DNA of 6,412 nucleotides from a virus (lineage: Duplodnaviria > Heunggongvirae > Uroviricota > Caudoviricetes): IMG/VR virus record IMGVR_UViG_2690316210_000006. One strand, given 5' to 3'. The translations under genes were made by a program, and so were the position numbers. Positions 1 through 6,412 of this stretch are shown here, in pieces. Numbering within the stretch: position 1 is the first letter of the stretch; each line of letters opens with the position of its first letter. The notes under the pieces were generated by a model. The model did no database searches, had not been told where the DNA came from, and worked only from the letters and a program-made list of their open reading frames with translations.

Positions 1-31
1 GACAATCCAAATGGCGAATTACCGTCTTATA

Positions 32-358
32 TCACTGGCGCTGACACTTCATCACCTCCGGACGTAAATCACCATCCTTTGGTGCATTCAGAAACGCGTT
101 CAGTGTCCCCGGTGCATCAGTCGGTGCCACATCAATATCCCCGACACGGGTTGGCTGCCAGCCGTTACAGTGAAGCGCAACCTCGTAATACCCCGGCTCA
201 GCCTCAATCACATAAGCACCGTTATTGTCCGTCACGCAAGTGGCAACAACGTGTGCCACAACGGTCGGACTGGTTCTTCTGGCCCGCAGTTCAATCGCAC
301 AATTTACGACAGGTTTACCCGCCCCATCTTTCAGTACACCTGAAATCTTTACTGCCAT
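32..358 (-). CDS. Side-tail-fibre (Stf) N-terminal-domain-like protein, 108 aa, ending at a TGA 31 nt from the window edge; possibly a truncated stf remnant
   Basis: Minus-strand ORF; from the internal Met the product begins MAVKISGVLKDGAGKPV..., matching the recalled N-terminus of lambda Stf, with PGTLN.FL and RPEV motifs also conserved. ATG at 356-358 is preceded by GGGGTGAAT (SD-like, ~5 nt spacing). The longer ORF-track start at 400 would overlap a terminator-like hairpin. Position after lom matches lambda order J-lom-stf. Confidence 0.55.
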   Translation of the reverse strand: MAVKISGVLKDGAGKPVVNCAIELRARRTSPTVVAHVVATCVTDNNGAYVIEAEPGYYEVALHCNGWQPTRVGDIDVAPTDAPGTLNAFLNAPKDGDLRPEVMKCQRQ

Positions 359-369
359 ATTCACCCCAC

Positions 370-394
370 AAAAAGCCCGCCTGAACCAGCGGGC
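370..394 (-). terminator. Putative intrinsic terminator downstream of lom (hairpin plus U-tract)
   Basis: On the minus strand: GCCCGC-TGGTTCAG-GCGGGC (6-bp perfect stem, plus-strand 375-394) followed by TTTTT (plus-strand A-run 370-374). Lies between the lom stop (422) and the stf-like start (358). Confidence 0.4.
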
Positions 395-421
395 AGTCAT
401 AACACTGTGTTACCTGGCTAA

Positions 422-1021
422 TCAGAACTTATAACCGACACCCACGATGAAACCGTCAGTGCGCCAGTCACCACTGCCGGAACCTTCATAAGCAAGGTCA
501 ATGGCCACGGATTCGGTCGGGTTAAACTGCACGCCAGCCCCCCACGCCAGAGACGTGTTGCTGTGGCGACCGCCATCACTCCCGGTCAGCACATCGTGCG
601 TTTTCCCCTTGTTGTCAGTTACGCGGAGATAATCCCCGGAGAAGGTCGACACACGGCTGTAAGCCACGCCCGCCATCGCATACGCGCTGAACCATTCATT
701 CACGCGCACAGACGGCCCCGCCATCACGCTGAACCAGCGGTTACGCACGGAATCCTCATGCCAGCGGGTATCGCTGTAATGCGTTTTTTGCTCATCTTCA
801 GCGTTGGCATAACTGAATGACGTAATCAGCCCCAGCGTGTCCGTAAACTCATAACGGTATTTCACGTTAATGCCCTTCAGGTCATCGCTGCCTGGCATAT
901 CAGTATGGGTCTGAAGATACCCGGCGCTCAGCGTGGACTGATGTTCAGACGCCCATGCAGGCGCACCGGATACGGCCAGGCAAATGGCTGCGGACAAAAT
1001 GGCTGCACAAACTTTACGCAT
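422..1021 (-). CDS. lom: Lom outer-membrane beta-barrel protein (Ail/Lom/PagC family), 199 aa, intact
   Basis: Minus-strand ORF; protein MRKVCAAILSAAICLAVSGAPAWASEHQ... is near-identical to recalled lambda Lom. Sec signal peptide with an AWA cleavage motif; C-terminal ...GVGYKF with terminal Phe typical of OMP beta-barrels. SD GAGAGG about 5 nt upstream of the ATG. Sits directly downstream of the J stop as in lambda. Confidence 0.95.
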   Translation of the reverse strand: MRKVCAAILSAAICLAVSGAPAWASEHQSTLSAGYLQTHTDMPGSDDLKGINVKYRYEFTDTLGLITSFSYANAEDEQKTHYSDTRWHEDSVRNRWFSVMAGPSVRVNEWFSAYAMAGVAYSRVSTFSGDYLRVTDNKGKTHDVLTGSDGGRHSNTSLAWGAGVQFNPTESVAIDLAYEGSGSGDWRTDGFIVGVGYKF

Positions 1022-1042
1022 AATTACCTCTCGCTTTTCTGC

Positions 1043-1070
1043 AATAAAAAAGGCACCATTTCTGGTGCCC
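1043..1070 (-). terminator. Putative intrinsic terminator between J and lom (copy 1)
   Basis: Minus strand: GGCACC-AGAAAT-GGTGCC (plus-strand 1052-1069) followed by TTTTTTATT, starting 20 nt after the J stop codon. Confidence 0.6.
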
Positions 1071-1088
1071 GTATCTGGGTTATAAAAT

Positions 1089-2522
1089 TCAGCTAATCGT
1101 GATGCCTGCAGTGGCTTTCTTCATCACCACAACCAGCAAATCGCTGATACTTGCTGTGGGATACCAGCCATTTACCAGCCATGCCGATACAGAAAACTCC
1201 AGCGTCATGTGACCGTGACCGGCAGGCATATCAATAACACCCGTATATATCAGCGTATTATCCAGGGTCGTTCGGTTATAAATTTCAGCACCGTTTTTCT
1301 TCACTATCAGGCGGCATGACGAATAAATATTGTTATTCTTCCGCTCATGTTTAGCACCGCGAAACGCCACCGCGGGAATAACAATTTGCCGATCAAACGG
1401 CTGATCGTCATAAACCCTGACGGTAATGGTCCCTGATGGCCACCTCTCCGGTGCCCGGGAGTCCCGTGGGAAAGGTTTGCCCACTGTTTTAACGAGATCG
1501 CCTTCAATCTGGTTCGCGGACAATTTTCCCAGAACCCGACAGTTCTTATTAATCGTGACGTTGTTGAGCGTCCCGGAGTTCGCGTTCACGTTACCGCTGA
1601 TATCGGCATTTTTCGCCGTCAGCCGCCCGTCCGGTGTCAGGGAAAATGCCGGAGGATTACCGCCGCTGGTAATGGTCGGAGCCGTCAGGCATTTCAGGAA
1701 CACGTCGTTCATGAATATCTGATCGCCCTGACCAACAAACATCGGCTTTGTGTTGCCATTCGCAGGATTAATCATCGCAATCCTGTCTGCCGCCAGCAGC
1801 ACCTGACTCTGCATTCCTGCTGGCGTATTCTCAATACCGGCACCGATACCCGCAATATAAAGGCGTCCGTCCTTCATCTGTTGCAGCTTCACAGCCCACA
1901 TGCTGTTCAGGTTATTATTTGTATCAACCTGAACTTTCTGTATCTGCTGGATTGCAGCACTCTGATTTTCCAGTTTTTTATTGACGGTTTGCGTGATTTC
2001 ATTGCTGACATTCGTAATGGACGTCCTGATTTCAGTCAGGTCCGGCGCAAGCTGACCGTTATCAATCTGCGTCCACAACTCCTTGCCGAGATGCGTTTTA
2101 TTGATCAACCCTTTATAAAAATTCAGATAACCTTCTGCATCATCGCTCGCCCGACCGATGGCCTCCACAAATGCCGATTTGCCAACGGTGTTCACACTGC
2201 GAACGTAAAAATAATAATCATGGCCCGGCCTGATATTGATACTGGCGGCTATCCAGTACAGCGCCGTGCCAAGATAGCGTGCTGTGGTTTCAACCTGCCT
2301 GATATCCGCAATCCGCTTTTCCGAGAACCAGAACTCAAACTGTACCGTCGGATCATAAACCGCAAGATGCGGCGTGGCGGTTATCTGAAAATAGCCCGGC
2401 GTCAGCTCAATCCGCGACAGCGCTGCCGGTGCGGCAATCCGGAACGATACCGACGCCGGATCGCCCTGCTGCCCCCACGCATTTACTGCCCGGACTGTCA
2501 GCCTGTAGTTCCCCAGCGCCAG
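1089..2522 (-). CDS. J: Host-specificity / tail-tip protein J, C-terminal ~477 codons (allele 1), 5'-truncated at the ambiguous base 2523
   Basis: The minus-strand frame reads [32 protein letters not shown]...[12 protein letters not shown]...[25 protein letters not shown]... to ...[10 protein letters not shown] then TGA (1089-1091), collinear with the recalled lambda J C-terminal region. The ORF-track start at 2195 is an in-frame GTG (Val in J), not a real start. Confidence 0.85.
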
Positions 2523-2986: not shown

Positions 2987-4249
2987 TCAGCTGATACTGA
3001 TGCCTGCGGTGGCTTTCTTCATCACCACAACCAGCAAATCGCTGATACTTGCTGTGGGATACCAGTTATTCACCAGCCATGCTGACACCGAAAACTCCAG
3101 CGTCATGTGGCCGCGACCAGCTGGCATATCAATAACACCACTGTAAATCAGCGTATTATCCAGCGCGGTACGGTTATAAATTTCAGCACCGTTTTTCCGT
3201 ACTATCAGGCGGCATGACGAATAAATATCGTTATTCTCCCGCTCATGTTTAGCGCCGCTGAATGCCACCGCCGGAATAACAATCTGCCGGTCAAACGGCT
3301 GATCGTCATAAACCCTGACGGTGATGGTCCCTGATGGCCACCGTTCCGGTGCACGGGAGTCCCGGGGGAAAGCTTTGCCCACTGTTTTAACGAGATCGCC
3401 TTCAATCTGGTTGGCGGACAATTTTCCCAGAACCCGACAGTTCTCGTTAATCGTGACGTTGTTGAGCGTCCCGGAGTTCGCATTCACGTTACCGCTGATA
3501 TCGGCATTTTTCGCCGTCAGCCGCCCGTCCGGTGTCAGGGAAAATGCCGGAGGATTACCGCCGCTGGTAATGGTCGGAGCCGTCAGGCATTTCAGGAACA
3601 CGTCGTTCATGAATATCTGATCGCCCTGACCAACAAACATCGGCTTTGTGTTGCCATTCGCAGGATTAATCATCGCAATCCGGTCAGCAGCCAGAAGCAC
3701 CTGACTCTGCATACCTGCTGGCGTATTCTCAATACCGGCTCCGATACCCGCAATATAAAGGCGTCCGTCCTTCATCTGCTGCAGTTTCACGGCCCACATG
3801 CTGTTCAGGTTATTATTTGTATCAACCTGAACTTTCTGTATCTGCTGGATTGCCGCACTCTGGTCTTCCAGTTTTTTATTGACGGTCTGCGTGATTTCAT
3901 TGCTGACATTCGTAATGGACGTCCTGATTTCAGCCAGGTCCGGCGCAAGCTGACCGTTATCAATCTGCGTCCACAACTCCTGGGCCAGATGTGTTTTCCC
4001 GATTTCTCCTTTGAAAAAATCCAGGTAACCTTCCGCATCATCGCTCGCCCGACCGACAGCCTCCACGAATGCCGATTTGCCAACGGTGTTCACACTGCGG
4101 ATATAAAAGTAATAATCATGGCCCGGTTTGATATTGATACTGGCGGCTATCCAGTACAGCGCCGTACCAAGATAGCGGGCTGTGGTTTCAACCTGCCTGA
4201 TATCGGTAATCCGCTTTTCCGAGAACCAGAACTCAAACTGTACCGTCGG
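2987..4249 (-). CDS. J: Host-specificity protein J, C-terminal 420 codons (allele 2), from PTVQFEFW... to stop; joined upstream to another J segment at ambiguous base 4250
   Basis: Continuous minus-strand frame [28 protein letters not shown]...[32 protein letters not shown]...[10 protein letters not shown] with TGA at 2987-2989. About 95% amino-acid identity to allele 1, with many synonymous nucleotide differences. Confidence 0.85.
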
Positions 4250-4250
4250 N

Positions 4251-4969
4251 GGTGTCAGGGAAAATGCCGGAGGATTACCGCCGCTGGTAATGGTCGGAGC
4301 CGTCAGGCATTTCAGGAACACGTCGTTCATGAATATCTGATCGCCCTGACCAACAAACATCGGCTTTGTGTTGCCATTCGCAGGATTAATCATCGCAATC
4401 CTGTCTGCCGCCAGCAGCACCTGACTCTGCATTCCTGCTGGCGTATTCTCAATACCGGCACCGATACCCGCAATATAAAGGCGTCCGTCCTTCATCTGTT
4501 GCAGCTTCACAGCCCACATGCTGTTCAGGTTATTATTTGTATCAACCTGAACTTTCTGTATCTGCTGGATTGCAGCACTCTGATTTTCCAGTTTTTTATT
4601 GACGGTTTGCGTGATTTCATTGCTGACATTCGTAATGGACGTCCTGATTTCAGTCAGGTCCGGCGCAAGCTGACCGTTATCAATCTGCGTCCACAACTCC
4701 TTGCCGAGATGCGTTTTATTGATCAACCCTTTATAAAAATTCAGATAACCTTCTGCATCATCGCTCGCCCGACCGATGGCCTCCACAAATGCCGATTTGC
4801 CAACGGTGTTCACACTGCGAACGTAAAAGTAATAATCATGGCCCGGTTTGATATTGATACTGGCGGCTATCCAGTACAGCGCCGTGCCAAGATAGCGTGC
4901 TGTGGTTTCAACCTGCCTGATATCCGCAATCCGCTTTTCCGAGAACCAGAACTCAAACTGTACCGTCGG
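4251..4969 (-). CDS. J: Host-specificity protein J internal segment (third copy, 719 bp, PTVQFEFW... to ...[10 protein letters not shown]), allele-1-like, bounded by N4250 and the N-run
   Basis: Same reading frame as the J copy downstream; the sequence matches 1633-2351 almost exactly and 3531-4249 at ~95%. Forms the N-terminal part of the 608-aa ORF-track entry 2987..4813. Confidence 0.8.
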
Positions 4970-5152
4970 NNNNNNNNNNNNNNNNNNNNNNNNNNNNNNN
5001 NNNNNNNNNNNNNNNNNNNNNNNNNNNNNNNNNNNNNNNNNNNNNNNNNNNNNNNNNNNNNNNNNNNNNNNNNNNNNNNNNNNNNNNNNNNNNNNNNNNN
5101 NNNNNNNNNNNNNNNNNNNNNNNNNNNNNNNNNNNNNNNNNNNNNNNNNNNN
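4970..5152. other. Run of 183 ambiguous bases (assembly gap or masked sequence) inside the J reading frame
   Basis: Directly visible as n characters. Its length is close to the ~185 nt of J coding sequence expected between the flanks (STARTTET upstream, PTVQFEFW downstream). Confidence 1.
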
Positions 5153-6412
5153 GTGGTTTCCGTCGTCCGGGCCGTGCTGACCAGTCGCTCACTGCCGTCG
5201 TCCGCTGTTACGGTCAGACGGAGCAGGAAGCTCACGCCCTTCACCACCTTCGGCGTGTCCCAGCGCGCCAGCACCTGATATTCCCCGCTGTCTGCAGTGA
5301 CTTCGGCGGTCAGGTGCTGCACTGCTGGCGGCGTGACACCATTCACCGTGCCGCTCTGGTCACCGTCAAAGTGCGCCCCGTTATCCACGATGGCTTCTTT
5401 CTCCGGTACATGCTGCACGGCGGTGATGGCATACGTGCCGTCATCGTTCTCACGGATACTCACGCAGCGGAACAGGCGCTGGCGCAGCGTCGGCAGCTTC
5501 AGCCCCCACACGCTGTATTCTGCAACGCCGTCAGGAACACGGCTCACTTTCACCTTCACGCCGTCGGTGACGGACTGGACCTCCACGCTGACCGGATTAC
5601 CCTGACCGTCAACCAGGCTTATCAGCGTGGTACCGGAGGATGGCAGCGTGATTTCACGGTCGAGCGTCAGCGTCCGGGTCTGGCTGTTCACCGCCAGCAC
5701 GCGCCCGCCGGTGCTGATACCCGCATAGTCATCATCGCAGATTTCAATGACATCCCCCGGTACATGGCGAAGCCCTTCCGCACCCACGCTGAAGTCCACG
5801 GTCTGCGTTTCCAGCAGTTCCGTTTTAATCAGCCACAGCCCGGCGCGGTGCGCCTGCCCCCGGCTGGTACAGCCAAAGGCATCCATCTTCGTGACGTTAC
5901 GACCGTAACGGNACAAGCTCTGTCGCCGTCTCCCAGCCGTTATCCGGGTCAATCCAGTTCACCTCAACGGCATTATGACGGTCCTTCAGGGCACTGAAGC
6001 TGTAGCGGAACGGCGCGCCATCATCCGGCATCACCACATTACTGCGGTTATAGGCCCACACCTTATCCGACTGTCGGTCCTGCACGAACGTCAGCGTCTG
6101 CCCGTTCCATACCGGCATACAGCGCATCGCCGAGCAGAAATCACTGAGAACATCCCACGCCTTGCGCTGTGTGGTCAGGTAGGCATTACAGGTGATGCGC
6201 GGCTCCGTGCCACCAAAGCCATCCGGCACCGACTGGTCGCAATTCTGGCCGATGACATACAGCGCCCATTTGTCCACATCCGCCGCACCGAGACGCTTCC
6301 CCATGCCGTAGCGCGGATGGGTCAGCATATCCCACAGACACCAGGCCATGTTGTTGCTGTATGCCGGTTTTAGCGTTCCGTCCCAGATACCGCTGTATTG
6401 CCGCGTCTGCGG
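5153..6412 (-). CDS. J: Host-specificity protein J, central region (5'-partial at window edge), with a frame break at ambiguous base 5912
   Basis: Minus-strand translation gives ...MAWCLWDMLTHPRYGMGKRLGAADVDKWALYVIGQNCDQSVPDGFGGTEPRITCNAYL...NAVEVNWIDPDNGWETATEL, then after N5912 in another frame RYGRNVTKMDAFGCTSRGQAHRAGLWLIKTELLETQTVDFSVGAEGLRHVPGDVIEICDDDYAG...LVSTARTTET, collinear with recalled lambda J. Confidence 0.9.

Follow-up and report, generated by a model that had tools for sequence, protein, structure and literature searches.

An stf-like reading frame of 108 codons in a lambdoid prophage, very probably a stump left by insertion of an IS21-family element

The short reading frame and its neighbours

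The window (the whole stretch of 6,412 nucleotides that was analysed) ends, on its low-numbered side, in a short tail fibre reading frame. Located on the minus strand, it comprises 108 codons plus a stop and runs from an ATG at 358-356 to a TGA at 34-32; the stop after 108 codons given in the preliminary description was confirmed by direct reading. The automated ORF listing starts further upstream, at an ATG at position 400, which gives 122 aa. This start was rejected since it falls within the hairpin of the lom terminator (375-394, see below), and the start was placed at 358 because MAVKISG begins every homologue.

Residues 1-104 of the product matched the Pfam family PF08400 ('Prophage tail fibre N-terminal') with an E-value of 9.8e-37 and a score of 126.4 bits (cut-off 26.6), over positions 1-104 of the 134 positions of the profile. 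Residues 5-83 also matched PF13620, a carboxypeptidase-regulatory-like beta-sandwich (profile positions 2-75 of 82). A tblastn comparison of the product with 50,697 phage records gave 311 matching records, 309 of which covered at least 80% of the query. Among the matches listed, alignments ended at residue 103-104, and one weak match (33% identity) reached residue 108. Identity to lambda-type Stf was about 50-54% in this search (51.9% for lambda imm434). Together with the PF08400 match, an identity of about 52% bears out the Stf-like N-terminus proposed earlier. The NCBIfam search of the same product retrieved no meaningful family, with one sub-threshold chance hit. The frame is not a full-length Stf: it is made of 104 stf codons followed by four codons of insertion sequence (IS) origin. 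The stf part (hereafter stf', 312 nt, containing the N-terminal PF08400 domain) occupies positions 47..358 of the minus strand.

All neighbouring features lie on the same strand. A Shine-Dalgarno-like GGGGTGA, read from the sequence, is found at 361..367, 2 nt upstream of the stf' ATG, and lambda imm434 has an annotated ribosome-binding site at the corresponding position before its stf gene. Between lom and stf', an intrinsic-terminator-like hairpin (375..394) displays a 7-bp stem with six GC pairs, followed by the T-run TTTTTGTGGG. The lom gene itself (422..1021) codes for an Ail/Lom outer-membrane beta-barrel protein of 199 aa (PF06316, E-value 4e-129, residues 1-199 of 199). It is preceded by the C-terminal part of the tail tip protein gene J (1089..2195, PF12421 and PF09327), whose ORF is cut by a scaffold join at the N of position 2523. 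This C-terminus maps onto the sole J gene (1159 aa) of the Shigella sonnei FORC_011 chromosome (locus L005, see below). Lambda imm434 and locus L001, one of two loci with an intact relative of the gene, share this order of J, lom and stf. A promoter scan of window positions 1-1100 did not detect any sigma-70-like site.

Beyond these genes, the window is a stitched draft scaffold. It contains Ns at 2523, 4250 and 5912 and a run of 183 Ns at 4970-5152; those at 2523, 4250 and 4970-5152 sit exactly at block borders, and position 5912 falls within the last block. The blocks so bordered all map to one and the same FORC_011 segment spanning the J C-terminus and lom (92.7-98.9% identity). They include a second lom (2407-2919), broken at an N, and repeated J C-termini (2987-4813) with an internal repeat. 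FORC_011 has a single J-lom-stf' arrangement, and the additional copies are most likely segments of different lambdoid prophages joined by the assembler, not a tandem duplication. Repeated J segments beside the same lom-stf' end were also observed in sister S. sonnei drafts, where very long ORFs (up to 1919 aa) without Pfam match were recorded (L006 33-5792, L007 33-2219 and L009 2630-3469). This suggests that several S. sonnei drafts went through one assembly pipeline, which stitched J repeats in a similar way in each. The repeated J and lom blocks of such a scaffold should not be taken as biology.

The junction between stf and an IS21-family left end

The point where stf stops was located by comparison with intact relatives. 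In a megablast search of window positions 1-1100 against 5,426 complete E. coli genomes, the best matches displayed 98.8% identity and all ended at position 47. Nucleotides 1-312 of the ORF are identical (312/312) to genes coding for proteins of 470 aa at loci L001 and L002 (8743-10155), and from nucleotide 313 onward 13 of 15 positions are unlike the intact gene. At the protein level, the intact product reads ...RPEVMK-RFEEMVAQAQ... and the product of the window ...RPEVMK-CQRQ, followed by the stop.

These 470-aa relatives (WP_046880233.1 from E. coli CFSAN029787 and WP_151334812.1 from E. coli O121 201805972) occupy the same place after J and lom, with 98.8% identity in the lom/J flank, and are the closest known counterparts of the stump. 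In these enteroinvasive (EIEC) and O121 strains the intact gene is followed by a DUF4376 gene and then by an ipaH effector gene. Compared with the 470-aa gene, the window has an IS end in place of codons 105-470. The preliminary description had also pointed to a middle part of the frame that diverges from lambda. The divergence is real, but it belongs to an ordinary allele, since the same 104 residues begin the full-length 470-aa genes.

The sequence on the other side of the break point was recognised as an IS terminus. Window positions 75..1 matched thousands of sites in E. coli chromosomes and plasmids. The two annotated matches (L003 at 2510 and L004 at 2511) lie about 100 nt upstream of an IS21-like istA, at points where other genes break off; there, PGAP names istA 'IS21-like element IS21 family transposase', with istB directly downstream. 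In the alignment, the sequence common to the IS21-like copies begins with TGTCAGCGCCAGTGATATAAGACGG..., that is, at window position 46 and downwards. The left terminal 46 nt of an IS21-family element thus occupy positions 1..46 of the minus strand, with istA co-directional with stf, and these are the only 46 nt of the IS inside the window. Identity over positions 46..1 was 45/46 to the E. coli copies at L003 and L004 and 46/46 to FORC_011 (L005 10313). The switch from stf to IS sequence takes place between window positions 47 and 46 (...GAGGTGATGAAG on the stf side, TGTCAGCGCC... on the IS side), where the IS21-family left end TGTCAGCGCCAGTGA... directly abuts stf. In view of these matches, the last four codons (TGT CAG CGC CAG, for Cys-Gln-Arg-Gln) and the TGA, at 32..46 of the minus strand, were attributed to the terminal repeat of the IS21-family element and not to stf.

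Immediately beyond the IS21-like left end, the 10 flanking nucleotides were purine-rich and partly alike at three independent sites: GGTGATGAAG (window 47-56), GGTGAAGAA (L003 2500-2509) and GGGGAGAAA (L004 2501-2510). Because the flanks are partly alike, BLAST ran the IS match 10 nt into stf. Their likeness could reflect either a target preference or chance.

By megablast, the stf-IS junction was absent from the 5,426 complete E. coli genomes. An exact search with the 57-nt junction likewise found no copy in a genome contig collection that appears to hold one genome per GTDB species, and where an E. coli genome would be the sole representative of Shigella.

The FORC_011 locus and the state of its prophage

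An exact look-up of the 108-aa protein retrieved one finished chromosome, CP010829.1, and seven draft contigs. CP010829.1 is the chromosome of S. sonnei FORC_011 (PMC5447701). The protein is deposited as ALZ55769.1, under the names 'hypothetical protein FORC11_1838' and 'prophage tail fiber N-terminal domain-containing protein [Shigella sonnei]'. All 327 nt of the ORF are identical in FORC_011 (327/327), where the truncated frame lies at L005 10001-10327. Draft contigs with the complete 108-aa protein terminate about 38 nt past its stop.

Beyond the junction, FORC_011 displays a composite of insertion sequences. IS21-like sequence is present as two pieces: the first (L005 10313-10740) consists of the left end and IstA residues 1-109, identical (109/109) to an E. 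coli IstA, and the second (12003-12677) contains more of istA. Only residues 1-109 and about 129-294 of the IS21 transposase profile NF033546 were recovered at this locus. Between the two pieces lies a first IS600 copy (10741-12002), on the opposite strand and 99.8% identical to elements named IS600 by PGAP; the istA sequences on either side of it overlap by 5 nt when aligned to an uninterrupted element. A second IS600 copy (12678-13854), inverted and lacking its first ~85 nt, follows the second piece and forms a perfect inverted repeat of 1177 nt with the first. Directly after the right end of the second IS600, at L005 13855, comes stf sequence again; this point is equivalent to L001 9488 and to nucleotide 746 of the intact gene, and from there the sequence matches L001 at 95% through the DUF4376 gene. 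FORC_011 has lost 433 nt of stf (codons ~105-248 of the 470-aa gene), along with istB, the 3' part of istA and the right end of the IS21-like element.

The remaining 3' part of stf (668 nt, the last 222 codons) thus survives 3.5 kb downstream and has no start codon of its own; an NCBIfam search of this fragment gave no meaningful family. No stf sequence was found within the 3.5 kb that follow the junction in FORC_011. This speaks against another suggestion of the preliminary description, namely that the gene continues in a different frame past the edge of the window: an IS adjoins there, and the 3' part of stf is not met until 3.5 kb later. An in-frame homologue of full length, by which the stop would have been an error, was found in other genomes (the 470-aa genes) and not in this one. 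The stop is hence considered real and not a sequencing error, because the full-length frame occurs only in those other genomes.

The prophage around this locus is itself severely reduced. In FORC_011, homology to the intact EIEC prophage starts only within the tape-measure gene, 340 nt from its end. The region L005 1-3406 carries genes for a Q antiterminator and YbcO, then IS3-family fragments, then the ~340-nt end of the tape-measure gene. No head, lysis or complete tape-measure genes were found between Q and the tail-tip genes. As the head genes, the lysis genes and most of the tape-measure gene are absent, the S. sonnei prophage cannot build a tail.

Downstream of the fibre gene, a DUF4376 gene (L001 10106-10729, L005 14476-15099) overlaps the 3' end of the 470-aa gene by 50 nt, in the position of lambda tfa, and is intact in S. 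sonnei despite the destruction of the fibre gene. An NCBIfam search of its product gave no meaningful family. The gene is followed in FORC_011 by a four-gene ABC metal-uptake cluster (L005 15300-18749; ABC-3, ABC-3, ABC_tran and ZnuA), which resembles sitDCBA, whereas the EIEC and O121 relatives have the ipaH effector gene there.

Origin of the short frame

The reading that best accounts for these results, and which we hold with high confidence, is that ORF 32-358 is the stump of an stf pseudogene of a lambdoid prophage, disrupted by an IS. An IS21-family element would have inserted between nucleotides 312 and 313 of stf; translation from the intact stf start would then proceed through 104 Stf codons and end with Cys-Gln-Arg-Gln and an in-frame TGA supplied by the IS terminal repeat. 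The break point with both its flanks and the FORC_011 architecture were observed directly, as was the repeated occurrence of the junction in S. sonnei assemblies. The DNA of the window comes from S. sonnei or a near-identical genome, and what lies past its position 1 is deduced from FORC_011 and the sister contigs. The likely order of events is an IS21-like insertion into an intact stf, followed later by IS600 insertions and a deletion. In FORC_011 the IS21-like element is split by one IS600 and truncated by a second, which abuts stf nucleotide 746, and an IS600-associated deletion would have removed the remainder of the IS21-like element together with 433 nt of stf. The stump is probably a non-functional pseudogene fragment, given that the prophage makes no tail and that the fibre is left with neither shaft nor receptor-binding part.

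A different reading, also raised in the preliminary description, takes the frame as a genuine small gene, its 108-aa N-terminal-domain protein being kept for a function such as tail-tip binding or decoy. The start codon, the Shine-Dalgarno-like sequence and the whole CarboxypepD_reg-like beta-sandwich (5-83) are intact, a stable product of 108 aa is possible, and the sequence is identical in many S. sonnei assemblies. Yet the final four codons and the stop come from the IS end, the PF08400 match breaks off at profile position 104 of 134, and the prophage that carries the stump is gutted. S. sonnei is a very recent clone, and identity among its isolates is for this reason no evidence of selection.

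The short homologues point in the same direction. A search with the 108-aa protein gave 71 proteins, 62-189 aa in length and mostly carrying the label 'partial'; it returned nothing above 189 aa and so missed the known 470-aa relatives, and these lengths are not a fair census. The 90% cluster holding the query has 208 members, of which the commonest are 'partial' Shigella proteins of 102, 99 and 104 aa, on at least 1000, 101 and 45 contigs, respectively. They represent the stump sequence, which a contig end has cut at K104 or slightly before it. Over 1000 draft contigs of S. sonnei terminate at or near the stf-IS junction, as expected from the fact that assemblers stop at repeated IS copies. 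Cluster members that read past residue 104 (S. boydii, S. flexneri and E. coli) continue with RFEEMV... as the long 470-aa gene and not with CQRQ and a stop, an ending encountered in S. sonnei records only among the sequences compared. No stand-alone family of Stf N-termini of ~110 aa with a conserved C-terminus of its own emerged among the 71 homologues and the cluster members; nearly all the short ones are fragments at contig ends. Neither the stand-alone domain protein nor the conserved family of ~110 aa envisaged earlier is upheld, and a small gene retained for function appears highly unlikely.

The join of stf and IS could also be a chimeric product of assembly at a messy scaffold end, the real gene being intact. 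The window is visibly stitched, with N joins at 2523, 4250 and 5912, the N-run at 4970-5152 and its repeated J and lom blocks, and the junction lies only 46 nt from the window edge. However, the finished chromosome CP010829.1 shows the same junction, as do seven independent draft contigs, all with the identical 108 aa, and window positions 1-2522 form one continuous block with that chromosome at 98.6% identity. We regard an artefact as very improbable.

Still more doubtful is the idea that S. sonnei expresses the stump formed by the IS insertion, by read-through of the weak lom terminator or with signals carried on the IS, and that the product acts as a free tail-tip-binding beta-sandwich. If so, superinfecting lambdoid phages could, for instance, have their side-fibre docking sites occupied by the free stump.

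A point mutation or frameshift within stf, with the remainder directly following in another frame as in lambda PaPa, has a precedent in the stf of laboratory lambda, found as two ORFs of 401 and 314 aa, but has next to no likelihood here, as an identity of 312/312 nt to the intact gene gives way to a complete change to an IS end and no stf sequence follows for 3.5 kb in a finished genome. Of the earlier proposal of an stf remnant inactivated by mutation, the remnant therefore stands and the kind of mutation does not, the lesion being an IS21-family insertion after codon 104.

As an IS-disrupted stump, the frame has two obvious parallels. With lambda Stf (orf401 and orf314) it shares the PF08400 family, the order J, lom, stf and the condition of a naturally broken gene, and it is ~52% identical over 104 residues, a comparison that covers the N-terminal part only. 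The lesions differ: a frameshift leaving 401 and 314 codons in lambda, an IS leaving 104 codons in the stump. The second parallel is with the Shigella pseudogenes caused by IS elements (IS21-family, IS600): a coding sequence likewise breaks off where an IS begins, next to a deletion and with IS600 copies nested in the element. From these the stump is no different in kind; its own junction was seen here in S. sonnei records only. Shigella has undergone extensive IS-driven gene decay, with IS expansion as the main route of gene loss. A named entry for the 108-aa protein already existed in GenBank, and the generation of such pseudogenes by IS elements is commonplace and already known in kind.

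For annotation, the label of an IS-disrupted stf pseudogene fragment is accordingly to be preferred to that of a small 'tail fiber N-terminal domain-containing protein'. Its apparent premature stop would be a routine footprint of IS activity in a decaying Shigella prophage.
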